64,000 nucleotides of DNA, from assembly GCA_964438515.1 (NCBI GenBank), contig CAYTLK010000003.1, positions 20,195 to 84,194 on the forward strand. The letters run 5' to 3'. Origin of the DNA: an uncultured Planctomycetaceae bacterium (lineage in GTDB: Bacteria > Planctomycetota > Planctomycetia > Pirellulales > Thermoguttaceae). Under the pieces are notes generated by a model. That model was given only the letters and a program-made list of their open reading frames with translations. It did no database searches and had not been told where the DNA came from. Shown here piece after piece: positions 2,959-59,599 of this stretch. How positions within the stretch are numbered: the stretch's first letter is position 1; each line of letters starts with the position of its first letter. Made by a program: the position numbers and the translations under genes.

Positions 2959-3110
2959 GTTTCCACTCTAACGGGAGGAAACAAAACGCTCCCGTAGAGA
3001 CGTAACTGTCGTGGGGAAAAAACATTTTGAATGTTGTTTTTTCCCCAGTTACTCGCTCCCGGTCGCACCGGGTCAAAAACTTTTTAATATTGTGTTTTAG
3101 GACTTCCTAA
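2959..3110 (-). repeat. R1 structured intergenic repeat, copy A (minus orientation)
   Basis: The reverse complement aligns with copies B (37395..37522) and C (49162..49299). Shared blocks are gtcctaaaacacaatattaaaaagtttttgacccggtgcgaccgggagcgagtaactgggg, the hairpin ggggaaaaaacaacattcaaaatgttttttcccc, and acgtctctacgggagcgttttgtttcctcccgttagagtggaaac. It starts about 9 nt after the stop codon of the 3119..4063 gene. Confidence 0.8.
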
Positions 3111-3118
3111 TCGTTATT

Positions 3119-4063: not shown

Positions 4064-4185
4064 TAATTGAATCTCCTGTTTTTCAATAAAAAGGTAGGTG
4101 GTTTCTTTTTTAAACCTGATATTTTTATTGTAACGGGAACGGGAGAAAAAATCAACGGGGGACGGAAGATTTTTTCAAAAAACTC

Positions 4186-7100
4186 TTAAAATTTTTCCTT
4201 TTTGCCGGATTTTCGAACGACACCAACGCCCAAAACGCCCAGAATCAGCAACACCCACGCCGCAGGTTCCGGAATCGCATTCGCGTCGCGGGAAAGCAAA
4301 AGCGCACTGGAAACCGCATCCCAATTCAGGTTCCATTCGTAACGAAAATCAGAGCCGAGCCACGATTCCAGATCCAGGTTTTCAGCGGAACCGCCGGGAT
4401 ACGCATTCGAAACTTTGAACGTTTCGCTCGACCCCAAATTCGCGTCTTCTGCGACCACAAGCTCGATGAAACCATTATTTATGTCGTAGGTCGGCACCGT
4501 GTCGAGCACAAATCGGCTGAATTCTGTCGGAGAATCAATCAAAAGTTCCAGATTGGAGCCTTCGACGAACGCTGCGCCGCTCAGCGACACGTACGTTTCG
4601 TCGGAAGCGGGAGCCGGAGCCAGAGCGCCGCCCGCTTCGACCGTGTACGTGCCGGTTCCAGCCGCACCGGCAGAAAGAATAACGAGTCCGTCTACGATTT
4701 TCATTCCGCCCGCCCAGTTGTTTTGGGTGTTCGTAATTTTGAGCGTTCCTGCGCCAGATTTCACGATTTTGAGTCCTTCGTACCCCGAATGATCCGTAAT
4801 TTTGGATGTAATAGTGAGGTCCGCATTCCCGGCGGTCATCGCCCCTGTGTCTTCGACCGTCAAATCGAGTTCCGTGATGGACGAACCATTTTTCAATAAC
4901 ATGAAAATATTGTTGGAAATGACGGATCCCGTTCCGGTTCCATCGACCGTCAGAATGGGCGAGTCACTCGTCCACCAACCCATACGGAATTCTGTACCGG
5001 AAACATCGGCACCGTCTGTCAGCGTTACACGGTTTGCGTAGTTTGCGCCGGCGATGTACAATTCCGCATTTTCACCCGTCACGTGAACGGGGGTATTTTG
5101 AATGTTCCACGATTCCGCACGCAGGGTTCCGGTTCCGGAAACTTCAATCGTCGTTGAACCGAAATAACCATAACGGCTTCCGGTCGGAGCAAGTCCGCTC
5201 CCCGCCAGTCTGAGCGTCCCTTCCGTCACGGAAACACCTGCAATCGTTCCATTTCCGCCGGATTTTTCAAGCGTCAGCGTTCCTGTACCCGTTTTTTCGA
5301 GCGAAACAGCAGAACTGAAGGTCCCGGAAAACGTGGAATCTCCCGAAAGAACCTGGGAACTGGCGTTCGTGACGCTCCCCACTTTGAGCGTCGCCGCATC
5401 GCCGAGGACGGAAACGGTTCCCAAGCCGGTAAGCTGTTTGAGGTTGTAGGTTCCGACGCCGCCGTTTGCTGTCGAGAGGAGCTGAAGGGCAGAGGATGCA
5501 TCGCTGAGGTTCAGCTGACCGTAACCGAGCGCCTGAGTTGCTGAAATCTGTACGGTTCCCGCTGTCACTTCCATTCCCGTCGTCCATTTATTGGTGCCGT
5601 TCGTCAGACGCAGGACGCCGGCACCCATTTTTTTGAAAGGAATGGAGACGCTGGTCGAATTGTCGTAATCGCGCAGCTGACCGGAAATCGTGAGGTCCAC
5701 GCCCGTTGTGTCGCCCGTCGAATTGACCGTCACATTGAAAACCGAGCTTCCGTGAGTCGTCAAAACGATGTCCGCATCAATGAAAGAGCCGGAAGTTCCC
5801 GAAACGACCAGAACCGGGTTGGTTCCCGTTCCGTAATTATTTCCGACACGAAAACTGTTTCCGTCCGCATGGTCGTTCGAATTCGATTGCGCAGTGATTC
5901 TCGCACCGTTTTTCAATGTTAATTGATTCAAATACATTTGCTCGGCTGCGATGTGTATGGATCCGCCGTCAAGCGTGATGGGACTTCCAGAAACCGCAAA
6001 ACTCGTCGCAAGAATCAATTTTCCTGATGTATTTACAGTAATCGGCGTGTTTTTCAGCGCCGCACTACCGTATTTGTTGTCCCCTGAAAGAGAGAGCGTT
6101 CCTTGGTCGACGACGAGTCCCGCAAAACCATTGCTCTGCAACGCCGTAATTTCAAACGATCCGGCTCCGACTTTCGTCAGTTGGACGGTCGAACCGATGG
6201 AACCTCCGAAAGAGGCCGACACGTCCGCACTGGTGACGCCGACGCCGACATTTATGTTTGCACCCGTTCCGAGCGCCGAAAGCGACGCATTTCCGGAAAG
6301 ATTCTGAACGTTTGCCGAAATTCCTTCCGCCAGAACGATAGACGTTCCGTTCGAAGTGGAGATTGCGCCTTTTCCCGCTGCATTGTCGGCCGCAAGCTGA
6401 ATCGTTCCGGCCGTCAGATTGATTCCGCCCGCCCAAGTGCTTGCGTTGCTGGAAAGTTTCAGAACACCAGCCCCTGCTTTTTTCAAAACGAGACCGGAAA
6501 GTCCGGAATAATCGAAAATTTTTCCCGAAATCGTGAGGTCCACGCCCGATTCGTCGCCGGTAGAGTCGACGGTCACGGTATAATTGTCGCTGGACCCGCT
6601 GCCCCGCACCATGGTGATTCCGGCAGAGATGGCGGACGCAGAGGTTCCCGTGACGTACAACGTCGCATCCGAAACACCTGCATAATTGTATCCGACGCGG
6701 AAACTATTGTCGTCGTTTCCGCCGGAAGTTCCATTAACCGCAGTAACTGTAGCGCCGTTTTTGAGCGTCATATGATTCAGGTACTGCTGCGTTCCGGTCA
6801 GATGAACGTTCCCGCCGTCTGCGGTCAGCATTCCGCTTCCGATACCGAAATTGTGCGACACTAAAAGCTTCGCGCCGGCAAGAATCGTGACGGGCGCGGA
6901 ACTCATGCAGGGTGTACCAAATTCGCCGACCGACAGTTGGAGGGTTCCTTCCTGAACCGTTATACCGTCAAAAGCGGTCTGAATCTGCGTGATGTTCAAC
7001 GTTCCCGCCCCGGTTTTCAGGATGGCGGTTCCTGCGAGCTGGTTTGCGAAATTCAACGTTCCGTCTGCGACTTCAAACGTCTGCGCATCTCCCGTAAAAG

Positions 7101-17218: not shown

Positions 17219-18172
17219 TTATTCCAGTCTCGCAACGTTTCCGTCGTTTCGCGCTCCCAAATAACTGAAAATCGTCGTGTCGATACTGTACGAAACGTTC
17301 TGGACGGACCCGTCGCACATCACGACTCCGAAACCGCCTGCGTGACAGCTTCCGAAGTTGTTGCTTGCATCCATATAACCTGCACGGTCCTGAATCGCCG
17401 GGTAGGACGTCGTGGTTAAACGGTACGCATCCCAGTCCGCGGCAGTGTAAATCGGTTCGTTGTCGGAACCAGCGCTTCCGGTTTCGTAACTGTTCGGATT
17501 CAGGTACTTTTCGCCGATGAGAAACGTATTGGACGTTCCGTCGCGCACCTCACCCACCGTAATTTCACTGCGCGCGAAAATGACGCCCGTGGAGGTCGAC
17601 GTGGGCCAATTGTACGTTTTTGACGCACTGTAAGACCCAGGATTGACGCTGCTGTACGTGTTGGAACTGTTGCAAGCGTAGTCGGTTTTTCCCGCCTGGC
17701 TGGCGCCGTCCGAATTGGTGACGCCGGTTCCTGAGGGGTACGTCTTGCACGCACGGCGCGAGGGACACGTAAAAAGCGGAATGGGAGACTCCGCACGCGT
17801 TTTCGCTCCCTTTTTCTGATCCGCAGATTCCGTTCCGGGGTCGCCGTCCGCACCGAGCTGATAGAGTGCGTTCTGTTCCACAAACGGAAGAAGCGAGTAC
17901 GTCCAGCCCCCCATCTGCGTCTGTCCGAACCCTGCGTCCGGGTCGCCCGTCCAGTTCCAGTTCCATCCGCCGCCGGGATATTTTTTCGACTGACTCTCAT
18001 GATTGAGTGCCGCAAGACCCATCTGTTTTAGATTATTGTTGCACTGCATTCGACGCGCCGCCTCGCGAGCCTGCTGAACCGCCGGCAAAAGCAGACCGAC
18101 GAGCATTCCAATAATCGCAATCACAACCAAAAGCTCCACCAACGTGAACGCCGACCTGTGTATTTTACCCAT
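17219..18172 (-). CDS. DUF1559 protein with prepilin-type N-terminal cleavage/methylation domain
   Basis: MGKIHRSAFTLVELLVVIAIIGMLVGLLLPAVQQAREAARRMQCNNNLKQ, plus the C-terminal H-X9-DG motif (HAGGFGVVMCDG). An alternative start 15 codons upstream at 18217 is possible. Confidence 0.85.
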   Translation of the reverse strand: MGKIHRSAFTLVELLVVIAIIGMLVGLLLPAVQQAREAARRMQCNNNLKQMGLAALNHESQSKKYPGGGWNWNWTGDPDAGFGQTQMGGWTYSLLPFVEQNALYQLGADGDPGTESADQKKGAKTRAESPIPLFTCPSRRACKTYPSGTGVTNSDGASQAGKTDYACNSSNTYSSVNPGSYSASKTYNWPTSTSTGVIFARSEITVGEVRDGTSNTFLIGEKYLNPNSYETGSAGSDNEPIYTAADWDAYRLTTTSYPAIQDRAGYMDASNNFGSCHAGGFGVVMCDGSVQNVSYSIDTTIFSYLGARNDGNVARLE

Positions 18173-18396
18173 TTTATACACGCCCCCCAATTTGTTGTTA
18201 CTGAGTGTTCGACGCATTTTAAAACCCCAATTTTAAAATACGACAAATTTTTGATTTTGATTTTATTATAAAACGAAAAGAACGTTCTGTCAAGCAAATT
18301 ATTGCAGAAGAATCGAAAATTTTCGAAAAAAAGAGGTTCTCGTTTCAAAGAACCTCCACAATTGAAAAACCCACTTTAATCAAAACTATTTTTCAT

Positions 18397-22783: not shown

Positions 22784-23962
22784 TTACTTTTCCATCAAGG
22801 AATCGTAAATATCTCGGATTTTTTTCATACGTACGCCGAAGCTGTACTGCCGCATAATCGTATAATTTCCGTTCTCGCCGAGCATCCGACGGTATTCCGC
22901 ATCCGCAAGAAGCGTCTCAATCCGGAGTTTCAGCTCCTCATCGTTCTTCATCGCAACGAGAATTCCATCGTAACCGTTCGTAATCAGGCGCGGCACACCC
23001 GCCACGCGAGTCGAAAGGACCGGAACTTCGTACGCCATCGCTTCAAGCACCACGTTCGGAAGCCCCTCACGCAAGCTGTTCAGCACAAAAAGATCGAGAC
23101 CCTGGTAAAACGTCATAATATCGTCACGAAAACCTAAAAGATGAATCCGATCTCCGTGTCCCGACGCATCAATCTGATGCTGAAGCGTCTCACGAATGGG
23201 ACCGTCGCCCGCAATGAAAAGCGAAACATTCCGTCCCTCTTCGAGAAGCTCCGAAACGACACGAATGAGGCCCGCAAAGTTTTTTTCCGGAGACAGACGC
23301 CCGCAAGCGCCGATCACGAATTGATCTTTGGGAAAACCAAGCTTCGTTTTCGCTTCCTCGACCTTCATCGTACGCGTGTACTGCAACGTATCGATGGCGT
23401 TCTCGATGAGCGAGCAGCGTTCCCGACGCACCCCAAGCCGCAAACATTGTTCGTAAAGGTCGTGCGAGACGCAAATTACGTGATCGTAATGCTTCAAACA
23501 CCAGCGGTCAATTCCATAGTAAATCGGCGTCTTCCACGTATTCCGAACCCACCCGTGAACCGTCGTGACGAGTTTCATCGGATGTTTCTTTCGCAGCCGC
23601 AGCCCGAACCAGTTGCTTTTGTAGTCGTGACCGTGCCAGAGACCGATATTTTTTTCCTCACAAATTTCCAGCAGCTTACGTCCCACGGTACGGTCAAAAA
23701 TTCCGCGGTCCTCAACCCCCACCATCGGACAGTTCTGCTTTTCCGCCCGACGCAAAATCACGTCAAACCCCGGATCTTTCGGAGGGTGCATATAGGCGCA
23801 GAGCGTCGGATAGCCGTAACTGTTCATGTAGCGCGGAGTATTAATAATCGTTTTGTCCGGACCGCCGCCCTCCCCCGTAACGACGCGAGTCTCCAACACC
23901 GCAGCTTTCACCTCGGCAGAACGCTTTTCCGAACGAATCGGCACAATCTCATTCATCATCAT
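22784..23962 (-). CDS. glycosyltransferase family 4 (GT-B, GT1-type C-terminal domain)
   Basis: SLREGLPNVVLEAMAYEVPVLSTRVAGVPRLITNGYDGILV (E-x7-E region). The start ATG at 23962-23960 overlaps the upstream stop TGA at 23961-23959 (ATGA overlap). Confidence 0.85.
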   Translation of the reverse strand: MMMNEIVPIRSEKRSAEVKAAVLETRVVTGEGGGPDKTIINTPRYMNSYGYPTLCAYMHPPKDPGFDVILRRAEKQNCPMVGVEDRGIFDRTVGRKLLEICEEKNIGLWHGHDYKSNWFGLRLRKKHPMKLVTTVHGWVRNTWKTPIYYGIDRWCLKHYDHVICVSHDLYEQCLRLGVRRERCSLIENAIDTLQYTRTMKVEEAKTKLGFPKDQFVIGACGRLSPEKNFAGLIRVVSELLEEGRNVSLFIAGDGPIRETLQHQIDASGHGDRIHLLGFRDDIMTFYQGLDLFVLNSLREGLPNVVLEAMAYEVPVLSTRVAGVPRLITNGYDGILVAMKNDEELKLRIETLLADAEYRRMLGENGNYTIMRQYSFGVRMKKIRDIYDSLMEK

Positions 23963-25140
23963 TTTGACAGAAAAGTCTCCAATTGATTCGTCTTTTCTTC
24001 CCACGTTTCCTTTTTCAGCCTCTCTCGAGCAGCAGTCTGCGTCTCTGGAAGCCCCGTTTTCACCCGAAGTTTTACGGTTTCAACGAATTCTTCCGCCGTT
24101 TCCGTCACATCCAGCGCGTCCTTCCACTCCTCAGCCGCCTGCAGATTCGTGACCACCGCTGGTTTTCCGCTCGCCAGATATTCCGTCATTTTCAACGGCT
24201 GAATCTGTTCCGTCGCCTCATTCTTCCGATACGGCATCAAAAGCACATCCGCCATCGACGCGAGCTGCGGAAGCGCCTCGTAAGGAACCGCCCCGGGAAG
24301 AACTATATTTGAAAAACGTTTCATTTTTTCAACCACATCCTGCGCCGCAACAGGTCCCGCTAAAATGAGGGTTCCTTCTGGAATTTCTGTCGCCAGACGC
24401 GTAATCATTTCCGGTTCAAGACGCTCATCAATCAACCCCCAAAACACGAAAACGGGTTTTGAAAGTTCTTTCCGCAGCACTTCCGGCAAAATTGCCGCAA
24501 CAGGTGCATCTTTCGGCAATTTTGCCGCAACACGCCAGAAGTCCAAATCCACTCCATGCGTCAGAAGCATCGAATCTCGACCCATCCGACGAATCCGCGC
24601 CCTCAGCGCCTCGCCGACCGTTACGATTTTATCGACCTTTTGAACCAGTTTCGCCTCCATCTCCGCCAAAGGTTTCGCGTCCATTCCGGGCCAGCGGCTC
24701 CAATCGTCCACGCAATAATACACCCACTGACGCACGTTCGGAAGAATCCCGACGAGGTCTGCCGCGATGGGAAGCGTCGTAATTACCGTAACGTCCTTCT
24801 CGCGATCGAGTCGGCGGGCCAAAGCGTGAAACAACAGTTTCCGATTCAGAACCCGATCGAACGCACTCCGAAACCACGGCCACATCCTGGGATGAAGCAC
24901 CTCCGGTTCACGATTGCAACTTGATTTTTTGCCGTGATTTCTGCGTACCGAGAGCCACACCCGGAGTTTTTCTGCCGCGCGCCGAAACGTCAGAACGTTC
25001 CAACCCGGCGGCCGGGTCCCAATGGTATTCACCCAAATGACGGAATTTGCGTCGTTTGCGAGTAAACAGTGCGCCAGATGCTGCGAGCTGGACGGATGCC
25101 GCCCCCAGTCGTCGCTGAAAAACAAAAAAACGGCCATCAA
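23959..25140 (-). CDS. glycosyltransferase, TuaH-like
   Basis: The N-terminus MMAVFLFFSDDWGRHPSSSQHLAHCLL is the pattern I recognise from TuaH-type glycosyltransferases. The C-terminal half is GT-B-like (LLMPYRKNEATEQIQPLKMTEYLASGKPAV). Confidence 0.65.
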   Translation of the reverse strand: MMAVFLFFSDDWGRHPSSSQHLAHCLLANDANSVIWVNTIGTRPPGWNVLTFRRAAEKLRVWLSVRRNHGKKSSCNREPEVLHPRMWPWFRSAFDRVLNRKLLFHALARRLDREKDVTVITTLPIAADLVGILPNVRQWVYYCVDDWSRWPGMDAKPLAEMEAKLVQKVDKIVTVGEALRARIRRMGRDSMLLTHGVDLDFWRVAAKLPKDAPVAAILPEVLRKELSKPVFVFWGLIDERLEPEMITRLATEIPEGTLILAGPVAAQDVVEKMKRFSNIVLPGAVPYEALPQLASMADVLLMPYRKNEATEQIQPLKMTEYLASGKPAVVTNLQAAEEWKDALDVTETAEEFVETVKLRVKTGLPETQTAARERLKKETWEEKTNQLETFLSK

Positions 25141-25152
25141 AAAAACTTCTTC

Positions 25153-28100
25153 TTACTTTTCACTCTCAACGACATGATGATAGTGTTCCTCCAGAAAACG
25201 TACGAAATCCGCTTTCTTCCAGTCGTTCAAGTCGCGAAAACGAAAACGGAGACAGTCGAAACCGGGGTAGCGGCTGTCGATTTCCGGCTCAAAACCGTAC
25301 ATTCCAATGTGGTCAAACGGATACATATTCTTCGGATTGAAAAGTTCGAAATAAATCGCATCTCCCTTTTTCGTCGTGATTCGCGCCCACGAAGACGAAA
25401 ATCCCGGCGGCGTCACAGGAACCACGACCTTATTCTGCCATCCCCAGACCGCCTCAGGCGCAATGCGTTCAACCGCTTCAACAATCGTCTCGAACAACTC
25501 CAACTTCCACTGACGCTGCACTCCTCCCAGAAAACCGTTCGGCGATTCGTGCCACTTTCGCCCTTGCGTCTTCCATGGTTTCAAATCTTCCGGCGAATCT
25601 TCCGCCAGACGTACGAGTGCTCGAAAACCTTCCTGCGCCTCCTCAAAAAACTTCCACATTTCCGGCGTATTGAATTCTGACCAAAAATGAACCCTCATTT
25701 CCACATCCTGAAAACCGTCCTTATTGTCGGTCACTCGCACACGCGGCGATGTTCCGTACACCGGCAGTTCCGGAAATTCATTGAGCGGACGAAGATTCAG
25801 ACGTTTTACGAGGTCGGCCGTTTTAAAAGTCTCTTTCGCAACCCGAAAACTGAGTTTCAAAAGCCACTCATCGTTCGTGTACATGTGCAGAAATTTGGTG
25901 TTCGAACGCAGAATCGAAACGGCCCGAATCACATTTCGATCGTTCCAATCGACATCCACATCGTCCATCATTTCGAGACGGTCCAGCAGCGCGTCAAAAA
26001 TTCGGACGTCCCAGTGAGCCGGATTTCGAAGCGGAATCGGCGAGGTGGGAGGCAGAATTTCCCCGTGCGCCGGCACCGCCGCGCGGCACCGAGTGCTTCG
26101 AGCCTGCGAATGCCAGCGGATTCCATCCACTTCCCACGGCATCTTCACAGGCGACTGAAACTCTTCGGACGCAGCGTCTTCCAAATCGTTCGATTTTGAG
26201 ATTTCCGTCTTCCGAAACGCATCCACATCAAAGATTTTCCGTTCTTCGTGCGGATCGTTCTTCAAAATAGGCGCCAAAAACTCCCCCGTATAGGAACGAG
26301 GAAGCGGATTTTTTGTTTTCAGCGACTTTTTTGCTCTCAGTGCGTACATTACGACGTCTTCCGGCGTCCCTTCCACCACAAGCTGTCCGCCGTTGGTTCC
26401 CGCTTCCGGTCCCAGTTCGATGAGCCAGTCCGCACTTTTTATCACATCCAAATTGTGTTCAATCACGACGACCGTATTTCCCATGTCGACCAGCCGATGC
26501 AGCACATCCAGGAGTTTCACGAGGTCCGAAAAATGCAGTCCCGTCGTCGGTTCATCAAGAATATAAAGCGTTTTTCCCGTGTCGGGGCGCGACAGTTCCG
26601 ACGCGAGTTTCACCCGCTGCGCCTCTCCGCCCGAAAGCGTCGGCGCCGGCTGTCCGAGCGTAATATAATCGAGTCCCACATCGCAGAGCGTCTGTAAAAT
26701 ACGCCGAATATTCGGAATTCCCCGAAACAGTTCGAGCGCCTCCGCACACGTGAGATTCAGAACGTCCGAGATGGAATAACCTTTATACCGCACCATGAGC
26801 GTTTCCGGTTCGTAGCGCTGTCCTTTGCATTCGTCGCACGTCACCCAAACATCGGGCAAAAAGTGCATTTCTATCTTAATCTGACCGTTTCCCTCGCACT
26901 TTTCGCAGCGTCCTCCCGGAACGTTAAAACTGAAACGCCGAGCCGTAAAACCCCGCATTTTCGAGTCCGGAAGCTGTGCAAAAAGTTCCCGAATGCAGTC
27001 GAAAACACCCGTATAAGTCGCAGGATTGGAACTGGGGGTCGTTCCGATCGGACGCTGATCGACCTCAATCACCTTATTTACATTATGGATTCCGCGAATG
27101 ACCGTATGCAGACCGGGAATCGTTCCGGCACGATGCAGCTGACGGGCGAGCGTGTTGTACAGAATATCCTCCACAAGCGAGCTTTTCCCCGAACCGCTTA
27201 CACCCGAAACCACCGTAAACGTTCCCAGCGGAATTCGAACATTGATGTTTTTCAAATTGTTCTGACGCGCGCCGAGAATTTCGATCCACTGCTGCGCAAC
27301 CGTTCCGGAGGAGGCGGAAAGACGGTCTGACGCATCCGTATATTCTTCGTCGTCCCAATATTCCGAGCCGCCGCTTTCATCGGAAGCAAAATCCGATGCT
27401 GAACCCAAAGTTGAACCCGAAACGAAGTTCGAAGCGGAACCCAAAGTTGAATCCAAAACGGAGTCCGACGTCAGAGCCGGCAGCAAATGACGATTCGAAG
27501 GAATCGGAATCGCACGCGTCCCGGAAAGATAGTTTCCCGTAAGTGAGTTTGGATTGCGTTTGATTTCCGCAGGCGTCCCCTCACCCATAATTTCGCCGCC
27601 CCAGCGTCCTGCATTCGGCCCAAAATCAATCAGTTTGTCCGCATTTTCAAGCACGTCTCGATCGTGTTCGACGACCAAAAGCGTGTTTCCCAAATCCCGC
27701 AGTTTACGCAGAGTCTTTATAAGCCGCATATTATCGCGAGGATGAAGGCCGATCGTAGGTTCGTCGAGGACGTACAGCACGCCGCACAGCCCGCTTCCGA
27801 CCTGCGCCGCAAGCCGAATCCGCTGCATCTCGCCGCCCGAAAGCGTGGGTGCGGGACGGGAAAGCGTCAAGTATTCGAGGCCCACATCGAGAAGAAACTG
27901 GGTCCGATTCTTGATTTCACGCAAAATTTCCCCGGCGATTTTACGTTCCGAAGCCGTAAGTTTCCATCCCGAAAGCTCTTCGAGAAGGCGCGAAAGGGGC
28001 AGTTCACAGATTTCATCAATCGTTTTTCCCCTCAAACGCACGGCGGCCGCATCGTCACGCAAACGGCTTCCGCCGCATTCCGCACAAGGAACATCATCAA

Positions 28101-31100
28101 TATTCGACTCTAATTTATGCCGCAGCGCAGGAACGAGCCGGGAAGTTTCCTCCACAACCGACATCAATCCTTTGAACTGAAAGCGAAACTGAAACGCCTC
28201 CGCATCGACCTGGAACCAGCGCTCTCCCGTTCCTCTCTGCAAAATTTTCCGAAAACGCGGCGCAAGATCCTCGTACGGCACATCCATCGGGACTTCCATT
28301 TCCGTACAAAAAGATTTCATCATTTCAGCCGCTATCGGTCCGGCAGACGGCGTCCAAATGGCGATTGCACCTTCGGAAAGCGTCCATTTCGGATTCCTCA
28401 GGAGTAAATTTGGGTTTACACCATTCTGCACCCCCAGCCCCTCGCACGTCGGACACCAACCCAAAGCGGTATTAAACGAAAAATTATTGGGCGCAAGCGT
28501 CTCGAAACTGCGTCCGCACTGGTCGCACACATTATGTAGACTGTGCGTTTTCGACTTCCACCGCGTCTGCGGCTTGAAATCGTCCACTTCGAGCACAATC
28601 ATCGTTCCGTTTCCCATATCGAGCGTCTGCTCGATGCTTTCCGCAATCCGACTTCGGTTCTTTTTATCGTTGCGTATTTCAATTCGATCCACCACGACTT
28701 CCACGTCGTGCTTCCTCAAACGATCGATTTCCGGCACATCATCCAGATTGTAAATCATCCCGTCGATACGCACACGCACGAATCCGCTGCGCCGAAGCTC
28801 CTCCCAAAGCGTTTCGTAACGATGACCGATCGTGATTTCGCGCGACGCCAAAAGCATGAGCCGAGTTCCTGCCGGATGCTTCATCACACGCGCCACAATT
28901 TCGTCCGTCGTCTGCGAACCGATGGGAATCTGACAGTCCGGACAGTACGGCGTCCCGAGACGCGCCATCAGAATGCGCAAATAATCGTAAATTTCCGTCA
29001 CCGTCCCGACCGTCGAACGCGGACTCTGACTCATACGTTTCTGTTCGATTGCAATCGCAGGCGCAAGACCTTCAATCCGTTCCACATGAGGCTTCTGCAT
29101 CTGACCGACGAACTGACGCGCGTAACTCGAAAGACTCTCGACGTAGCGCCTCTGTCCCTCTGCATACACGGTATCCATCGCGAGTGAACTCTTTCCAGAA
29201 CCGCTCGGACCGCAGCAAACCGTCAAAGCGTCACGCGGAATATCGAGTGAAATGTGCTTCAAATTGTGCTGGCTCGCATCTTCCACATGAATACAGTTCG
29301 GATGTTTTTCCTCATTTTCGGCCTCCGATGCGGCTGCGGAAGCGAGCGACGTCGGAACGGAACCCTTTTTCCCCTTCGAATCTTGATTTTCGTCCGAATT
29401 TTCTTTTGAGATTGAAAGCATTCTTTCCACCTCAAGTTTCTGAGCCTCAATCGCCTCTTCCGTGTTGCGCTGCGCCGGAGGAATCAACATTTTTTTGAGA
29501 GCGGCGGCCGTGTAGGAACGTTTGTTTTTCACCACGTCTTTGGGTGTGCCGCACACGACGACTTCACCGCCGGCGTTTCCTCCTTCAAGCCCCAAATCAA
29601 TAATCCAGTCGGCCGTTTTCACGACATCGAGATTGTGTTCGACGACCACCACCGTATTTCCAGCGTCCGCGAAATTGTGCAGCACCTTCAGCAGCTGTTC
29701 AATATCGGCAAAATGCAGCCCCGTAGTGGGTTCGTCGAGGATGTACATCGTGCGTCCCGTACTGATTTTTACGAGTTCCCGCGCGAGTTTCACCCGCTGC
29801 GCCTCACCCCCGGAAAGAGTCGGCGAGGGCTGACCGATTTTCATATAATCGAGACCGACGGAATGAAGCGTCAGAAGTTTCTGATAGACGCGCGGCACAT
29901 TTTCGAACAACTCCATCGCCTGCTGAACGTCCATTTCCAAGACGTCCGCAATGGAATGTCCCTTAAAAAGAACCTGGAGCGTTTCGTAATTGAAGCGTTT
30001 TCCGCCGCAAACGGGACACGTGACCCACACGTCGGCAAGAAAATCCATCTCGAGCTTCGTCGCGCCGTATCCCTGACACGCCTCGCAGCGTCCGCCGTCC
30101 ACATTAAAGCTGAATCGTCCCGGTTTAAACCCTCTTTGTTTGGATTCCGGAAGTTCCGCAAACATCATCCGAATTTCATCGAAAAGTTTGATGTACGTTG
30201 CGGGATTGCTCCTCGGCGTCCGTCCAATGGGCGACTGGTCGATGGAAATCATCTTGTTCAAATGTTCCAGCCCCTCAATCGAATCGTACGCGCCGGGCGT
30301 TCCGATACCGTGATTCAAGTCGCGATGAAGAATCTCCTTCAAAACTCCATTGATGAGCGAGCTTTTTCCCGACCCGCTCACTCCCGTGACGCAGATGAAT
30401 TTTCCGAGCGGAAATTCCACATCAATGTGCTTCAAATTATGATGGGCCGCACCGCGAATTACGAGTTTTTCACCCGTTCCTTCCCGCGGAGTTTTCACCA
30501 CAGGAATGCTGCGCCTTCCGGAGAGAAACTGTCCCGTAAGACTCTCTTCCGAGTTCAAAATATCCTGAATCGAGCCTTCCACAACGACGTTTCCGCCGTG
30601 AACGCCTGCGCCGGGACCGAAATCAATGATTTTGTCCGCAAAACGCATCGTATCCTCATCGTGTTCCACTACAACGACAGTATTTCCGAGGTCCCGCAGG
30701 TGCTTGAGAGTTCCGAGAAGCCGATTATTGTCGCGCGGATGCAGCCCAATGGAAGGTTCATCCAAAATATACAGCACGCCGACCAAACCGCTTCCGATCT
30801 GGCTCGCGAGCCGAATCCGCTGCAGCTCACCGCCTGAAAGCGTCGGTGCCGTCCGGGAAAGCGAGAGGTATTCAAGCCCCACATCCGCCAGAAAACCAAG
30901 CCGATTTCGAATTTCGTGCAAAATATCTTTCGCGATGAATTTTCCAGTGGCGTCCAAATCCAGTTCCCGGAAGAACTGTATAACTTCCGAAATTGGAAGC
31001 CAACCGAGTTCCGGGAGAGAAAGCTCTTTTTTGTCGGAACAACTCCTGATTTTGACCGATCGCGCCTGCGGATTGAGCCTCTCCCCCTTGCAGAAACCGC

Positions 31101-32382
31101 ATGTACAAACGTTCATGAATTTCTCAAGATAGCGCTTCTGAATTCGGCTGTTTGTCGTCCGATAGGTGGAAAGGAGCTGCGGAATAATTCCCTCAAACGT
31201 TCCTCCCAGATTCGACCCCGCAGTCGTGTTGCGCCACGAAAAAGCGATATTCGCGTTTCCGGTTCCGTACAGCAGTCCCTCCTGCATCTCTTCGGGGAGC
31301 TTGCGCCACTGCGTGTCCAAAACGGATTTGTACGTCATCTGATACTGCGGGTAGGTCCGCGCGAGATACTCGGCGACGCAGCGATATTGTACGTGTTTCC
31401 AGCGTCCCAAATCATCCCAAAGCCCCACCGTCGCAACGGCTCCGCGCCGAAAAGATTTTTGCGGATTGGGAATGAGCCGTTCCGGGTCGAACGTGTAAAT
31501 TTCCCCCAAACCGTTGCATTCCAAGCACATTCCCTGCGGCGAATTGAAACTGAAAAGCTGCGGCGAGGGCGGTTCAAACCCCAGCTGACACTCCGTACAG
31601 GCGTACTCGCTCGAAAGCATCATCTCCTCGAACGGTTCCTGCTCCGCCTCCAGATCGGGCGCAACGATGAGCGAGTTGTTTCCAATGTGCAGCGCCGACT
31701 CCACCGCCTCCGCAAGACGCGACTGTACTTCGGGATGAAGCGTAATTCGATCCACCACAATGTCGATGTTGTGCCGCAGCTGCCGATCCAGACGCAGTTC
31801 CTCTGTAAGTTTTACCACCTGACCGTCCACGCGGGCACGCAAAAACCCCTGACGAAGAAGGTCGCGAAACAAATCTTTAAACTCCCCCTTCTGTCCCCGA
31901 ACCCGCGGCGCCAGCAGAAGCAGCTTCGTTTCCTCCGGAAGCATCTGAATTTGTGCAAGAATCTGAGGGCGCGTCTGTGCCGTAATTTTCCGACCGCAAT
32001 GAGGACAGTAACCCGTTCCGACCCGCGAATACAACACTCGAAGATAGTCGTAAATTTCCGTAATGGTCCCCACCGTCGAACGCGGATTTTGCCCGGTCGT
32101 CTTCTGCGCGATGGAAATCGCCGGCCGTAAATGCGTTATAAAATCAACGTCCGGCTTCGGCATCTGACCCAAAAATTGACGTGCGTAACTCGAAAGACTC
32201 TCGACGTAGCGCCTCTGCCCCTCCGCATACAGTGTATCGAATGCAAGCGAGCTTTTTCCACTGCCGCTCACGCCCGTAAAACAAATGAGTTGGTTGCACG
32301 GAAGCTCAACCTCTACATTTTGAAGGTTGTGCTCCCTGGCCCCTTTGATATGAATATCCTGTATCGACATGAATTTGAACAA
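25153..32382 (-). CDS. uvrA: tandem-fused double UvrA (excinuclease ABC subunit A x2) with an additional C-terminal domain, 2,409 aa
   Basis: Four Walker-A loops (GVSGSGKSS x3, GPSGSGKSS) and four ABC signatures ([52 protein letters not shown]). There are two UvrA N-terminal starts ([14 protein letters not shown] and [13 protein letters not shown], each followed by [18 protein letters not shown]). Cys4 zinc modules occur in both halves. An alternative start is at 32370 (MSIQDI). Confidence 0.9.
   Translation of the reverse strand: [2409 protein letters not shown]
25156..26259 (-). other. unassigned C-terminal domain of the UvrA fusion (about 368 aa)
   Basis: [10 protein letters not shown]...[13 protein letters not shown]...[15 protein letters not shown]...[11 protein letters not shown]...[14 protein letters not shown]. 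It is Trp-rich and carries no ABC or zinc-finger motif. Confidence 0.6.
26260..29307 (-). other. UvrA unit 2 (about aa 1026-2041), with a low-complexity insert at 27289..27492
   Basis: Second complete UvrA architecture from [15 protein letters not shown] to [27 protein letters not shown]. It is preceded by a ~60-aa E/K/S-rich linker (29308..29484). Confidence 0.8.
29485..32370 (-). other. UvrA unit 1 (about aa 5-966 of the fusion)
   Basis: Complete UvrA architecture from GAREHNL to [27 protein letters not shown]. Coordinates were derived by counting residues and are good to within a few codons. Confidence 0.8.
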
Positions 32383-32553: not shown

Positions 32554-33360
32554 TCAGAGAATCAGAGGTTCGTGTGTCCGTAAAATTTCTACCCCTGCGT
32601 CCGTCAGCTGCCGCGAGACTCGCCGCGTTGCATCGTCTCGGCTCATTCCCGGATTTTCATCGCACAGAGTCTGCAAAAAACCTTTTCTGGAATGTCCCAC
32701 AAGAATCGGAAGACCCAGCGCATGAAACCGTGAAATATTCCGCACGAGCGTCCAATTTTGTTCCTTCGTTTTTCCAAACCCCACCCCCGGGTCGGCCAAA
32801 AGTTTCTGACGATCAATCCCCGCCGCCAAAAGTGCGTCCCTCCGAGCGGCTAAATACGCAAAAACTTCTTCCGTTACATCTTCATACTGCGGGTTTTTCT
32901 GCATCGTTTTGGGCGTTCCCTGCATGTGCATAAAACAGAGCGCCGCTCCCGATTTCACCGCCGCTTCAATCATTCTCGGATCTTCAGCCCCTGAAATATC
33001 GTTGAGGATTTCCACCCCCAGCGCCGCTGCAAATTCCGCCGTTTCCGGATGGTACGTATCCACCGACAGAAGCGGTTTCGCACGTCCTTCCGACGCACAA
33101 CGCGCATAAATTCCTCGAATGACCGGCTCGATCCGACGAATTTCCTCTTCATACGACACCGGGTCGCATCCCGGACGCGTACTTTCGCCCCCTACATCCA
33201 GAATATCCGCACCTTTCGCAAGAAGCGTCATCGCGTGACCCACGACGTCTTTGCGCCCTCCGTCTGAAAACGAGTCCGGCGTCGCGTTCACAATCCCCAT
33301 CCAAAGTGTACGAGAAACAAAAACTGTACGGTAATTTGTTTTTAATTCAAAATTTATCAT
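32554..33360 (-). CDS. folP: dihydropteroate synthase
   Basis: GIVNATPDSFSDGG, ILDVGGESTRPG and DPGVGFGKT. The start ATG overlaps the stop of the upstream gene (ATGA at 33357-33360). Confidence 0.9.
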   Translation of the reverse strand: MINFELKTNYRTVFVSRTLWMGIVNATPDSFSDGGRKDVVGHAMTLLAKGADILDVGGESTRPGCDPVSYEEEIRRIEPVIRGIYARCASEGRAKPLLSVDTYHPETAEFAAALGVEILNDISGAEDPRMIEAAVKSGAALCFMHMQGTPKTMQKNPQYEDVTEEVFAYLAARRDALLAAGIDRQKLLADPGVGFGKTKEQNWTLVRNISRFHALGLPILVGHSRKGFLQTLCDENPGMSRDDATRRVSRQLTDAGVEILRTHEPLIL

Positions 33361-34082
33361 TTCTTTTTTTTGTTCACCATTTTCCCGACCTGTCGTCCCG
33401 CCACCCGGCTCAACGCACGAAACATCACATTTTTCGCTTGAGGTCCGCGCACGTCCGACTTCGACTTTTCCGAGGTTTTCTGTTCCGTTTTCGCCTCTTT
33501 CTTTGGCGCATCGTCTTTTTGCGATTCTTCCTTTTGCGCATCGTCATTTTGCGCCGCGTTTTGAGATTTTTCCTCTTTTTCGGTTTTTTCAGTTTTTTCA
33601 GTTTTTTTGCCGAACGCCGTCTCTTTCGATTCCTCTTCCTGCGTATTTTCGCGCAAGTTTTCACGCACAGCGTCACTCACGGTCTCAATCACCGTTTCCC
33701 GCACCGCATCGCGTACAGATTTCATATTTTTCAGGCTCGAATGAAGCACCCGCCACGATTTGGGACGATACTTTCCCCGGGCAAATGGAGAATTCAAAAA
33801 CATCAGCAGCACCGAAGCGGGAACCGCAAATTTCAGCAGGAACGGTCTCCACGCAACTACAGCCGCCGCCAGCGGAAGCCAGCCGATGTACGTCCAGCGC
33901 GGAAGCTTAACGATGCGTTTCCAAAAACACCAGAAAAAAAACAGCATGAACGAAGTGCGCCAGCAAATCGTTGCGTAAATCGTAATTTTCAGATGATTCT
34001 GGAAATAAATATACATTCCGATCATCAGAATCAGAATGCTGCAAATACCAAAAACAAAACGGAGGATTCGGGAATATTTCAT
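33357..34082 (-). CDS. hypothetical membrane protein with Lys/Glu-rich tail
   Basis: Hydrophobic N-terminal half with about 4 predicted TM segments (ILRFVFGICSILILMIGMYIYF...), then KTEKTEKTEKEEK-type low complexity. It is translationally coupled to folP. Confidence 0.5.
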   Translation of the reverse strand: MKYSRILRFVFGICSILILMIGMYIYFQNHLKITIYATICWRTSFMLFFFWCFWKRIVKLPRWTYIGWLPLAAAVVAWRPFLLKFAVPASVLLMFLNSPFARGKYRPKSWRVLHSSLKNMKSVRDAVRETVIETVSDAVRENLRENTQEEESKETAFGKKTEKTEKTEKEEKSQNAAQNDDAQKEESQKDDAPKKEAKTEQKTSEKSKSDVRGPQAKNVMFRALSRVAGRQVGKMVNKKKK

Positions 34083-34207: not shown

Positions 34208-37200
34208 TTATTTTAAAGGTCGAATCTGGACGTCATCCACGAAAGCCGTCCCGTAACCATTCATTGAAATTGTAATATACACCGGTTTTTCATTTTTTAC
34301 AATACGTTGGAACGAAATTTTTTGCCATCCGTTCGTCTGCAGGACCCGTTCGGCCAAAACATCGCCGGAATTGGAGTCGGTAATTTTCAGTCCGTCGATG
34401 GAATTCACGAGTCTCGCAGGAATATTCACCCACGCTTCCACTTCGTACACCGTCCCGGACGGTCCCGCAAAGACGGGGGGACTCTGAAGCATAATGGGCG
34501 GCGAATCAAACATCATCGGCGCCGTTTTTCGATCGATCGGACGAATTTCAAATTTTACACCCAAATTTCCGCTGTGCGCCGCCTCTGGAAGCACATCCGT
34601 GCGCGTTGTAATTCCCGCATACGCATTGATTTTCTGGAAGTGGCGCCATCCAAAACGCGGAATCTGTTCGAGATCCTCAAACCCTCCCATCGGCAAAATA
34701 TTTTCGGAGGGCTGCATCCCGTCCAGCGCGCGGAGCCATTTTTCCTGCAGACGCAGCGTCCGAAACGAGACGCCGGAAGGCTGAAAATTCGGCGAGGGAA
34801 AACGTGTGGTCCGTTCCTTCCAAAGACGGCGTTCCATGTACGCAATGGGACGCATCGCCCGCTGCGCAAGCACAAACGCATCCGCATATTCATGATTGTA
34901 CAACGCTTTTCCCGCACCCTCCAAATAGATTTTCGCACGTTCGTACCACATCGCTTCGTTTCCTTTCAGATCGCTCGTTCCGTGAAACTGGAGGTACGAA
35001 CGGAGCCGCATTTCCGCAAGTTCTTTCATCAATTGCGCCAGTCGCGGTGCATATCGGGCCGCACGCGCTGAAATGCTATTAATAATGAGCGAGTTCTGCG
35101 TCATTACAATCGTCGTCACGAGCGGAAGTTCGTCGAGTTCCACCTTCACGCCTCCTGCGGTGCGTCGGTTCGGAATCGGCGAGAGTCCGTTGAGCGAGTA
35201 CTGCCAGCACTGGTACGTTTCCGGAAGTCCGCGAATCAGAAACTCAATTTTCCGTTCCGCACCCGCGCCGCAGACGTACTGCGCCCCCTGTTCGAGCATC
35301 AAGGGAATTAAAATTCGTACATGATTCGTAACGAGCAGCGCGCCCGCAACATCAGGATGGTTCGACGGAAGCGTCGTAAATTTGTCGCCCTGCGAAATCC
35401 ACTGTTCGAGAATCAAAAGTTCCAAATTCACGAGCGTGAGCGACTTTGCGCGAAAAACCGTTTCTTCATCCGAAGCGTCCAAACGGGAGGAACTTTCGTA
35501 CAAAATTCCTCGACTCCCCGCCATCACGACGTTGTACGTAAAAAGCCGAATCTGTTCCAGCGGGAGTGAATCCGGTACAAAATTCACATCATCGGGTGCC
35601 GCACCATAATCCGTCTTTGAATTCTTCACGCCGGCCGCCATTTGCCGCCACTGGTCGCGCAGAAGAGGGTCGAACTGCGTCGGAACGCGTGCAAAAATCG
35701 ATTGTCGGGCGCGGACCATATTCAGCATTTCACGAAACCAAAGTCCGTACGAAACGAAACTCATCGTGGAATTCAAAGGACTGCGTTCGAACATCATCAC
35801 ATCGTAAATCGAGTCGTAAAGATTGAAATCTTTGTCGGGAATCACAATGTTGGGGCGCAGCGGAAGCTGATTTTCCGGAATCTGATGCAGGAGCGACATT
35901 TGCTGACGCGCAAAATCGACGGGCGTGCGCAGCGTCGGTTCCAGCGTTTTGTTTTGCCGCAGCTCTCCCAGCGTCGGCGTCCGACCCATATCCCACAGCA
36001 AAACGCGGTTAAAAAGCCGGTTTAAGGTGCGCGCCCCATCCACGATTTGCGACGGATCCGCATTCAAATTCGTCAGATTTACCGGAGGAGGACAAATAAA
36101 CCACATTTTCAAAAGCGCCGCCTCCGCCTCCATCGTACGCGTTGGGGGTTCTTCAAGCCAAACGGTATTAAATCCCAAAGAATGCAAGAATTCCAGCGAC
36201 TCACCATGATGACGAATCGCACGAACGAAAATCGGTTTTTTATCGACGGTGATGATGGAGTGCTGCATCTCAACCTGATGACGCGCCGGCTGATACTGCG
36301 CCACCGCTGCAGGATTCAGTGAAACCGCCTCCGGATTGAATTCGGAATCCGCGTCTGCATTTTCAGCTCCGGAACCACTGAACGTTCCGCTTCCGCCCGT
36401 ACTCGTTCCACCAGCACCCGTTCCACCCGCATTCGTTCCATTCGTACTTGATTCATTCAGAACCGCTTCGACGTCATTCGGACGGTCGGAACCCGCAGAA
36501 AAATCCCGCCCCGCAGCGGGTGCGTACTGCTGCGCGACGTCCCTCGGAACGGACGCCGCAGGAGCGTTTCCGACCGGATTTTGCCGTTCCTGATTCAACG
36601 CAGGAAAATCGCGCGGAATCGAAGAATTCTGTTCGATATTCGTTAAAGGAGCCTGAGTTCTCGTCATTTCTACCGCCCCGGAGATTTCAAGCAGATCCAT
36701 GTACACATCCACTTTTCCCGCCCCGGTAAAAACATTCAGCACAATATGGTCTAAAAACGCGTCCCGGACATCGAATTTTACCCGATCCCCAAGTTCGTAC
36801 TGACGGCGCGTCACCTCCCGATTCAAAATTTGGTCGATATTTTCGATTCGGAGTTTCTGCCACCGATTGACCGACGAATACGTTCCGCCAGCCACAAGCA
36901 GCGCGATCGGCTTTCCCGTTTCCGGGTCGATAGAATACGGAAGCACCACTCTCGCCAGCATTTGGATGCCGCTGCGATTGGAACGCACCCCCATTCCAAT
37001 CTGAAGCGACGAAGAAATTCGGAGAATTTTGGTAGGATACGCAATATACGCAGAGTCTCCGGCACTTTGACATTCCACCCTGCAATGCTCGCAACCCGTT
37101 CCCGACAGCGCGTTTTCCTTTTCACGCGCCCTCACCGTGAGTGTATGGGTGCAATTTCCTCCGAAATCGCGCCACATCGGCATTTCGGTCTCAAAATCGT

Positions 37201-37372
37201 CCGCCACATGCTGCGGTTCCGGCACAGCGACAGACTGCGAAGCGGCGTAAGAAACAAGGAACAAAAAACAAACCAAAAATCCCATTCCCCTCAAGAAAAC
37301 CCAAAAGTTCCAAAATGCGAGCTGTCGCATTGGGTTCCAAACGTTCGGAAAGTGAAAATGGGAAAATTTCAT
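34208..37372 (-). CDS. large conserved-looking hypothetical protein (about 1,050 aa), N-terminal membrane/signal segment
   Basis: Long uninterrupted frame. The start is uncertain (37372 MKFSHF or 37330 MRQLAF). The first 26 codons of the tracked ORF lie inside repeat R1-B and are not credible. A hydrophobic segment FLVCFLFLVSYAASQS is present, with a central G/T/S/N-rich linker. No catalytic motif was recognised. Confidence 0.55.
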   Translation of the reverse strand: MKFSHFHFPNVWNPMRQLAFWNFWVFLRGMGFLVCFLFLVSYAASQSVAVPEPQHVADDFETEMPMWRDFGGNCTHTLTVRAREKENALSGTGCEHCRVECQSAGDSAYIAYPTKILRISSSLQIGMGVRSNRSGIQMLARVVLPYSIDPETGKPIALLVAGGTYSSVNRWQKLRIENIDQILNREVTRRQYELGDRVKFDVRDAFLDHIVLNVFTGAGKVDVYMDLLEISGAVEMTRTQAPLTNIEQNSSIPRDFPALNQERQNPVGNAPAASVPRDVAQQYAPAAGRDFSAGSDRPNDVEAVLNESSTNGTNAGGTGAGGTSTGGSGTFSGSGAENADADSEFNPEAVSLNPAAVAQYQPARHQVEMQHSIITVDKKPIFVRAIRHHGESLEFLHSLGFNTVWLEEPPTRTMEAEAALLKMWFICPPPVNLTNLNADPSQIVDGARTLNRLFNRVLLWDMGRTPTLGELRQNKTLEPTLRTPVDFARQQMSLLHQIPENQLPLRPNIVIPDKDFNLYDSIYDVMMFERSPLNSTMSFVSYGLWFREMLNMVRARQSIFARVPTQFDPLLRDQWRQMAAGVKNSKTDYGAAPDDVNFVPDSLPLEQIRLFTYNVVMAGSRGILYESSSRLDASDEETVFRAKSLTLVNLELLILEQWISQGDKFTTLPSNHPDVAGALLVTNHVRILIPLMLEQGAQYVCGAGAERKIEFLIRGLPETYQCWQYSLNGLSPIPNRRTAGGVKVELDELPLVTTIVMTQNSLIINSISARAARYAPRLAQLMKELAEMRLRSYLQFHGTSDLKGNEAMWYERAKIYLEGAGKALYNHEYADAFVLAQRAMRPIAYMERRLWKERTTRFPSPNFQPSGVSFRTLRLQEKWLRALDGMQPSENILPMGGFEDLEQIPRFGWRHFQKINAYAGITTRTDVLPEAAHSGNLGVKFEIRPIDRKTAPMMFDSPPIMLQSPPVFAGPSGTVYEVEAWVNIPARLVNSIDGLKITDSNSGDVLAERVLQTNGWQKISFQRIVKNEKPVYITISMNGYGTAFVDDVQIRPLK

Positions 37373-37394
37373 TCTGCTGAAAAAACAAAAAACC

Positions 37395-37522
37395 GGGGAA
37401 AAAACGAAATACCAAGAAGTTTTTGAAAAAGGGGTCTGGGGGAAAAACATTCAAAATGTTGTTCCCCCACGACCGTAACGTCTTTACGGGAGCGTTCTGT
37501 TTCCTCCCGTTAGGGTGGAAAC
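37395..37522 (+). repeat. R1 structured intergenic repeat, copy B
   Basis: aaaaacgaaataccaagaagtttttga...gggggaaaaacattcaaaatgttgttcccccacgaccgtaacgtctttacgggagcgttctgtttcctcccgttagggtggaaac. It lacks the cccggt..ccggg module found in copies A and C. Confidence 0.8.
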
Positions 37523-58634: not shown

Positions 58635-58719
58635 TCGTTCCCGCGTTTTCCCAAATATCGAACTTTCGCCAATCGGCGCTTTCGGGCGCATAAAGATTTA
58701 AAGTATAAAAAGGACTCCC

Positions 58720-59586: not shown

Positions 59587-59599
59587 GCGGGGGGAAACT

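Follow-up and report, generated by a model that had tools for sequence, protein, structure and literature searches.

Two complete UvrA units and an unclassified C-terminal domain encoded by one planctomycete open reading frame

The window analyzed here is a stretch of 64,000 nucleotides from an uncultured Planctomycetaceae bacterium (assembly GCA_964438515.1, contig CAYTLK010000003.1, positions 20,195 to 84,194), and our subject is a very long uvrA gene on its minus strand, for which an earlier note, made from the letters alone, had proposed two UvrA units fused head to tail plus an extra domain. At 25153..32382 we found a single uninterrupted frame of 7,230 nt, encoding 2,409 aa counted from a TTG codon and closed by a stop codon at 25153-25155, just as had been described, and every motif quoted in the note was located where the note had put it. 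An identical database protein (P0003; 2,405 aa; from an NCBI contig of 142 kb) begins four codons later at the ATG at 32370, which is probably the true start rather than the TTG. From its N terminus, the protein consists of a first UvrA unit (aa 5-966; 29485..32370), a low-complexity linker rich in E, K, S and A (aa 967-1025; 29308..29484) that matches the ~60-aa E/K/S-rich linker of the note, a second UvrA unit (aa 1026-2040; 26263..29307), and a C-terminal domain (CTD; aa 2041-2409; 25156..26262), all on the minus strand. The units were delimited with the family model NF001503 and sequence motifs and, for unit 1, by mapping onto Escherichia coli UvrA. No other uvrA-like sequence is present in the window, which bears out the claim that it lacks a uvrA of normal length.

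Both units have the full set of UvrA domains and motifs. Unit 1 comprises a first nucleotide-binding domain (NBD-I, aa 7-618), with the UvrB-binding domain at approximately aa 124-265 and the insertion domain at approximately aa 296-420, and a second one (NBD-II, aa 641-956) with the Zn3 module (aa 766-792). The same order is found in unit 2, with NBD-I at aa 1029-1617, the UvrB-binding domain at approximately aa 1145-1289, the insertion domain at approximately aa 1320-1425, NBD-II at aa 1701-2030, and the Zn3 module at aa 1826-1852. In order along the chain, the four NBDs carry Walker A (aa 37, 667, 1058, and 1727), an LSGGE signature (aa 515, 856, 1514, and 1916), Walker B (aa 539, 881, 1538, and 1941), and an H-loop (aa 571, 913, 1570, and 1973), and each unit has three CxxC pairs, those of unit 1 at aa 126/262, 286/428, and 766/789 and those of unit 2 at aa 1147/1286, 1310/1433, and 1826/1849. 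When scanned separately (unit 1 as aa 1-970 and unit 2 as aa 1025-2045) with NCBIfam curated cutoffs, each unit on its own passed both NF001503 (1350.8 bits for unit 1 and 1260.3 bits for unit 2; cutoff 1147) and TIGR00630 (1300.4 and 1232.7 bits; cutoff 729.8), so that the UvrA-model search proposed in the note returned two complete units in one polypeptide. Applied to the whole protein, the NCBIfam UvrA models matched over several separate segments, and Pfam identified UvrA_inter (PF17760) twice, as expected from the claim that both units keep the UvrB-binding domain, together with two matches to UvrA_DNA-bind (PF17755) and four to ABC_tran. As judged by these sequence models, both units are class I UvrAs. 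Identity to E. coli UvrA was 54% for unit 1 and 52% for unit 2, and the two units were 50% identical to each other over the columns aligned to the E. coli protein and 42.8% identical over 1,036 BLAST columns, with only patchy similarity at the DNA level (at most 65-74% identity). PADLOC matched its mad8 (228 bits) and mad3 (543 bits) models to the UvrA NBDs at aa 646-921 and 1706-2008, respectively. We rejected these as signs of a defense system and read them as generic similarity among UvrA-like ATPases; as such ATPases are presumably included in the MADS models, automated defense annotation of uvrA genes could be misled.

A search of the full protein against 5.8 billion proteins recovered at least 120 clusters of relatives, 2,275-2,477 aa in length and 55-80% identical at approximately 100% coverage, and those with names were annotated as 'excinuclease ABC subunit UvrA' and assigned to Thermoguttaceae, Pirellulales, Planctomycetia or Planctomycetota. 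Among the 120 relatives examined, the Walker A, Walker B, and H-loop motifs were identical or near-identical at all four sites (120/120), the signature was LSGGE throughout with the exception of a conservative LAGGE in 29 copies of unit-1 NBD-I, and the zinc-module cysteines tested were all conserved in both units (120/120). A degenerate ATPase site was found at none of the four positions in these relatives, and the four nucleotide-binding sites noted in the window protein are all intact. The inter-unit linker (the equivalent of aa 967-1030) varied in this family from 21 to 90 aa, with a median of 32. The CTD was present in each of the 120 clusters, so the extra C-terminal domain reported for the window is both real and conserved.

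Genome sequences gave a similar picture of the distribution. Scanning one genome per species for the CTD and keeping the best 80 of 86 loci, we found that all but one of the CTD-encoding loci were titled Planctomycetota, covering Pirellulales, Planctomycetales (Schlesneria, Planctopirus, Planctomyces), and Gemmataceae, and cultured carriers of the gene included Anatilimnocola sp. NA78, Aeoliella, Bythopirellula polymerisocia, and Planctopirus hydrillae. The sole locus outside the phylum (L052; CAYYJM010000090.1) lies in a metagenome-assembled genome (MAG) titled 'uncultured Alcaligenaceae bacterium', a title that is probably a binning or labeling error. The complete UvrA-UvrA-CTD frame was seen at approximately 50 Planctomycetota genome loci; where enough upstream sequence was available, the CTD almost always closed a frame of 2,300-2,600 aa with four Walker A motifs, and the exceptions (for example, L008, L010, L014, and L057) resemble broken MAG frames.

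The CTD itself is an unclassified domain specific to planctomycete UvrA. The note had put the sequence without UvrA similarity at the last ~368 aa, and we measured it at 369 aa, for which blastp found no UvrA similarity and hhalign gave a probability below 1%, a value that also dismisses the idea of a degenerate UvrA domain. The window CTD had no match in Pfam, NCBIfam, or PADLOC, and PDB sequences compared with a profile of 40 CTD sequences yielded nothing even at E<=10. Among the 40 members of that profile, 21 matched HTH_32 over a short basic motif and one matched DUF1801; a helix-turn-helix assignment was rejected, as members checked singly scored 12-15 bits against a cutoff of 33.7, with a best E-value of 3.1e-5 in one member. 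Conservation within the domain is substantial: identity averages 58% per column, and 37 columns do not vary at all, most of them being W, F, P, G, R, or K.

Modeling and profile comparison revealed an internal tandem of two homologous alpha/beta lobes. The AlphaFold2 model built with the 40-sequence alignment (mean predicted local distance difference test, pLDDT, 86.3; predicted template modeling score, pTM, 0.69) has a helix at its N terminus, a loop that is variable and disordered, and a pair of alpha/beta lobes spanning CTD residues ~86-222 and 254-368, while a model from a 3-sequence alignment was unusable (pLDDT 42). Lobe A (aa 2122-2265; 25588..26019, minus strand) and lobe B (aa 2290-2409; 25156..25515, minus strand) aligned to each other in hhalign over 103 columns (E=5.7e-5, probability 66%). 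Each is preceded by the basic motif PW-x3-G-x2-WH, as MPWEVDGIRWH ahead of lobe A and KPWKTQGRKWH ahead of lobe B. The first of these falls in motif 1, MPWEVDGIRWHSQAR (26098..26142, minus strand), in which P, W, W, H, and R were invariant in the 40 sequences, and the second in motif 2, KPWKTQGRKWHESPNGF (25531..25581, minus strand), which lies within a strongly basic inter-lobe linker (median charge +4.8). Lobe A also contains a highly conserved, Pro-rich loop, LNLRPLNEFPELPVYGTSPR (25741-25800, minus strand). Foldseek searches of the model in PDB and BFVD gave nothing at E<=1e-3. The weak matches were to two-lobed or alpha-beta3-alpha-beta2-alpha proteins. Folds of LAGLIDADG pseudo-dimers, ARPC2, and type III secretion system chaperones were rejected as no more than topologically similar, at E-values of 3e-3 or worse (TM-scores of 0.1-0.4, root-mean-square deviations of 10-22 A), and so were BFVD matches to small uncharacterized phage proteins with target-normalized TM-scores of at most 0.55.

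An exhaustive HMMER search with the CTD against 1.84 billion representatives detected 397 proteins at E<=1e-3, and among the best 150 of these none joined the CTD to a partner other than UvrA. The domain occurs only after an NBD-II of the unit-2 type, even in split genes. Four candidate standalone CTD genes, each starting at the conserved MPWE, were inspected on their contigs and all were discarded as assembly artefacts: one has a uvrA NBD-II close upstream, a scaffold gap of Ns, and a gene called spuriously in antisense (P0134/L129), one comes from a frameshifted assembly with uvrA pieces upstream (P0135/L131), one follows a short edge open reading frame (ORF) on a contig of ~1x coverage (P0157/L132), and one sits at a contig edge (P0169/L130). 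We found no description of the CTD in the literature or databases searched.

Some related proteins lack the CTD or have an interrupted chain. On one IMG/VR contig (L105:3486-9368), a 1,996-codon open frame encodes a double UvrA of 1,961 aa from Met, which comprises two full class I units but lacks the CTD. In a neighbor-joining (NJ) tree with 200 bootstraps that included eleven single-unit UvrAs from IMG/VR contigs and E. coli UvrA, unit 1 and unit 2 of the planctomycete proteins formed separate clades (200/200 and 182/200 bootstraps), and the two L105 units joined the unit-1 and unit-2 clades, respectively, at 200/200 each, outside all CTD-bearing proteins. The corresponding CTD-less family (P0274-P0393) comprises at least 120 clusters of 1,961-2,149 aa, those with names coming from Planctomycetes or Planctomycetia, and the CTD profile matched 0 of 120 of them with a positive control of 120/120. 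Since CTD-less units fall in the same two clades, there was one ancestral fusion, with the CTD either gained later or lost in this family. A sister grouping of unit 1 and unit 2 received 15 of 200 NJ bootstraps, and the units may have originated either as sister copies or as two genes that had already diverged. A different double UvrA of 1,844 aa, also without the CTD, was found on two other IMG/VR contigs (L114/L115, with the frame opening at 3468); the insertion domain (E. coli residues ~286-405) is missing from the second unit of this protein, and its length is near that of chlamydial UvrA.

The split forms trace to the same ancestral fusion. At L133:1-5807, gene A (1-2844) stops exactly where unit-2 NBD-I ends, and gene B (2970-5807; P0127, 945 aa) follows 125 nt further on in another frame, encoding a 251-aa Lys-rich tail, then NBD-II, then the CTD. 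The layout of a tail, one NBD, and the CTD recurs in P0126 (L134:554-2884), P0136, P0138, and the L129 gene (2743-4942), and across split forms the tail of gene B is Lys-rich, histone-H1-like, and 17-265 aa long. No uvrA was found directly upstream of gene B on L134 and L129. The split-form NBD is 61-69% identical to unit 2 versus 54-56% to unit 1 and has the unit-2 type at 9-14 of 15 diagnostic residues; thus, cutting the chain does not part the CTD from unit-2 NBD-II. The point of the split coincides with the expanded linker between NBD-I and NBD-II of unit 2.

The surroundings of the gene in the window offered no repair partner: uvrB, uvrC, and mfd were absent from the window ORFs scanned. 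Upstream on the same strand, folP (32554-33360, minus strand) ends approximately 170-180 nt before uvrA, and its start is overlapped by 4 nt by a 241-aa ORF (33357-34082, minus strand) with a Lys/Glu-rich tail and no Pfam match; given the shared strand and short spacing, the 241-aa ORF, folP, and uvrA may be co-transcribed. Directly downstream are two GT4-type glycosyltransferase genes (22784-25140, minus strand), the first of which has a TTG start 13 nt past the uvrA stop. This pair follows uvrA in only 6 loci, the window included, and therefore looks lineage-local rather than functionally linked. A conserved neighboring gene as a candidate partner was discounted, as no neighbor occurred in more than 11 of 54 loci. 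Elsewhere in the window, the sole Rfam match is a bacterial RNase P RNA class A (RF00010; 20639-21056, plus strand; 257 bits), ORFs of 1,080 aa (34208-37450), 917 aa (60127-62880), and 440 aa (58348-59670), all on the minus strand, have no Pfam match at E<=1e-5, and a DUF1559 (SBP_bac_10) protein is encoded at 17219-18217 (minus strand), a family presumably typical of planctomycete genomes and fitting the taxonomic placement.

Taken as a whole, the gene, which comes from a Thermoguttaceae-like planctomycete of the order Pirellulales and has the form typical there, probably encodes a single-chain UvrA pseudo-dimer, made of two class I units head to tail and a lineage-specific CTD. The units would fold back on each other via the canonical ATP-binding-I dimer interface, so that one polypeptide would form a UvrA2 damage sensor with four ATPase sites, two UvrB-binding domains, and two Zn3 hairpins, and this pseudo-dimer would scan DNA and load UvrB for nucleotide excision repair. 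We examined the residues involved in such an interface by means of the Clostridium thermocellum UvrA dimer, whose contacts include R54-L507, Y55-Y55, F66-F66, and P83-L507, among others (PMC12796330), transferring the contact residues to E. coli numbering with a +2 offset. In both units, little or no variation is seen at the positions corresponding to E. coli R52, Y53, S56, F64, L79, P81, I83, L505, and V508, and the DNA-wedge residues Y60, Q63, and F64 are likewise kept. Two contact positions are fixed differently: at L65, unit 1 has L where unit 2 has V/I, and at V506, unit 1 has V where unit 2 has C. This residue pattern is what would be expected of a stable heterotypic unit-1:unit-2 interface and is consistent with intramolecular pairing. 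The putative covalent pseudo-dimer suggested in the earlier note therefore agrees with the dimer-interface residues retained in both units. We consider it rather likely that the halves pair within the chain to give a single-chain equivalent of UvrA2 that loads UvrB, as the sequence pattern suggests.

A number of observations weigh against this account. In phmmer comparisons, the units scored only 902 bits against each other, below their scores against canonical UvrAs of other phyla (957-1107 bits for PDB entries) and against E. coli UvrA (1044 bits for unit 1 and 989 bits for unit 2). The lobes of the CTD are mildly acidic (isoelectric point ~6) and have no recognizable fold relatives, so any functional assignment of this domain is weak. 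The shortest inter-unit linkers in the family, only ~16-21 aa long, could prove either sufficient or too short for the span that pairing within the chain would require. Such short linkers would also suit an arrangement in which fused units pair across chains, forming a domain-swapped dimer or higher oligomer with eight ATPase sites, and since the same canonical interface is present in both units, homotypic pairing of unit 1 with unit 1 and unit 2 with unit 2 is chemically possible. The unit-specific fixed substitutions at L65 and V506, however, fit a stable heterotypic contact, the natural split form retains one copy of each unit type, and a covalent tether would be expected to favor intramolecular contact strongly; we regard cross-chain pairing as unlikely, if still deserving of some weight.

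In the single-chain pseudo-dimer, fixed differences have accumulated because the halves are covalently distinct, and they would impose a mild but permanent asymmetry. We identified 72 positions that are fixed within each unit yet differ between units. They are evenly spread, accounting for 3-13% of the positions in every domain, with a value of 9% for the UvrB-binding domain, and the E. coli residue is kept at 33 of them in unit 1 and at 21 in unit 2. The suggestion in the note of a division of labor at the UvrB-binding segment found no support in these data: identity of this domain to E. coli is 36% in unit 1 and 39% in unit 2 of the window protein (family means, 41% and 36%), so that the two domains are about equally diverged, and the local motif that had been flagged involves two fixed differences, at E. 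coli R158 and K159, which is not unusual here. The clearest asymmetries are instead the divergent insertion domain of unit 2, its most divergent region, with 22% identity to E. coli versus 32% in unit 1, and its expanded linker between NBD-I and NBD-II, with a family median of 66 aa, compared with 35 aa for unit 1 and 36 aa for the E. coli protein. In the window protein, an acidic, Ser-rich insertion of 58 aa lies within this linker, at aa 1633-1698 (27289..27486, minus strand).

These same differences are what would be cited for an alternative in which one unit is a diverged paralog, class II-like with a role in drug or intercalator resistance or otherwise outside nucleotide excision repair, fused to a UvrA for excision repair: besides the 72 diagnostic positions, unit 2 is somewhat less canonical at those sites and has both the divergent insertion domain and the expanded linker. 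Class II UvrAs, however, lack the UvrB-binding domain and Zn1 (PMC9328131), which both window units have, and both units pass the class I equivalog cutoff and keep all of the DNA-wedge and interface residues, making a non-repair paralog improbable. Finally, although breaks do occur (MAG loci such as L008, L010, L014, and L057 are broken and L133 is genuinely split), the idea that adjacent uvrA genes and a downstream gene were joined by a missed stop or frameshift is effectively refuted and has next to no chance of being right, as the identical protein P0003 was deposited independently, the same continuous frame recurs in at least 120 clusters from many assemblies and at nearly all loci with enough upstream sequence, and units that are only 43% identical rule out a collapsed repeat. 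The conserved frame and the separate clades of the two units are in line with the old fusion that the note had favored over an assembly artefact. The fusion is shown by these data to be ancient, and the gene to be an ordinary planctomycete uvrA in its CTD-bearing form, with the full canonical UvrA constraint acting on both halves.

Within the preferred single-chain arrangement, the CTD would be mechanically tied to unit-2 NBD-II, at one end of the pseudo-dimer. We infer, weakly, that it serves as an accessory module for interaction or regulation, with protein binding more likely than catalysis, and that its position gives the complex an intrinsic asymmetry. A bolder proposal, which we hold to be doubtful, is that the CTD is a hitherto unrecognized partner-docking or regulatory domain that makes the sensor asymmetric; the tandem fusion, the CTD, and the split form would then jointly amount to a natural single-chain 'UvrA heterodimer' with four non-equivalent ATPase sites. 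If this were true, the CTD might, for example, load or hand off UvrB at one end only, or tether nucleotide excision repair to another machine or structure.

UvrA acts as a symmetric homodimer, and because a mutation in a homodimer hits both protomers, separate roles of its four ATPase sites are hard to assign; for the same reason, it is hard to ask whether the loading of two UvrB molecules is equivalent. A natural single-chain UvrA-UvrA protein would make each ATPase site, UvrB-binding domain, and zinc hairpin individually mutable, and the natural split variant marks where the chain tolerates cutting. Attached to a central repair enzyme throughout an entire bacterial class, the CTD is a candidate for an accessory role not yet known in nucleotide excision repair, and the gene that carries it is available in cultured planctomycetes such as Planctopirus, Aeoliella, Bythopirellula, and Anatilimnocola.

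Compared with known systems, each unit shares every domain, motif, zinc module, and interface residue with canonical class I UvrA (E. coli b4058, 940 aa; PDB 2R6F, 3PIH, 3ZQJ, and 9GXK). The canonical protein is a homodimer of a unit of ~940-1,000 aa, whereas the window protein has two units and the CTD in one chain, and it differs further by the expanded inter-NBD linker of unit 2 and the additional 369 aa at the C terminus. Class II UvrAs (Deinococcus radiodurans UvrA2, DrrC, and Ecm16) are UvrA-family ABC ATPases like the window protein, but the UvrB-binding domain and Zn1 are present in both window units, unlike in class II.

The long UvrA of Chlamydia is likewise double-length and comes from a lineage of the Planctomycetes-Verrucomicrobia-Chlamydiae (PVC) group. 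NCBIfam holds a model of 1,809 positions with a cutoff of 3054 bits, NF001885 (PRK00635), which we take to be the model of chlamydial UvrA, as its length matches that of C. trachomatis ct333. The window protein reached 1355.2 bits, and both of its units aligned to the N-terminal half of the model, with unit 2 best at positions 33-595; from this score under the cutoff and the placement of both units on one half, we conclude that the window protein is not a member. The double-length UvrA of C. trachomatis (ct333; 5,361 bp, 1,786 aa; PMC6686042) is also approximately 600 aa shorter, which leaves no room for the CTD.

The closest known counterpart is found in the planctomycetes themselves, whose UvrA has been described as two uvrA genes fused together (PMC8567305, Front Microbiol 2021, Fig. 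13). The window protein corresponds to this description in having two units in one ORF, with its nearest relatives in Thermoguttaceae, Pirellulales, and Planctomycetia, and it belongs to the same family, with shared unit-1 and unit-2 clades. Expression of a homolog has been shown, UvrA, B, C, and D of Tuwongella immobilis having all been detected by liquid chromatography-tandem mass spectrometry (LC-MS/MS) in the sodium dodecyl sulfate (SDS)-soluble fraction (PMC8567305); this co-fractionation lends indirect support to a part in damage recognition and UvrB loading. On the fusion, that account is limited to a single sentence and a figure drawn from Pfam domains, in which neither the CTD nor any biochemistry appears, and we found no further description of the planctomycete tandem UvrA in the literature searched. 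As to whether the architecture is already catalogued and characterized, a question raised in the earlier note, it is thus catalogued, being annotated as plain UvrA, but not characterized. The tandem fusion in Planctomycetes is already known and routinely annotated as UvrA, and because it is in the literature, our result counts as a refinement and does not introduce a new system. Three points are new: an unclassified CTD with an internal duplication is delineated, CTD-less and split forms are traced to the same ancestral fusion, and there is residue-level evidence that catalytic, zinc, DNA-wedge, and dimer-interface residues are kept in both halves. The window protein thereby represents the CTD-bearing sub-form of the planctomycete tandem UvrA, set apart here from the CTD-less form of ~2,000 aa.

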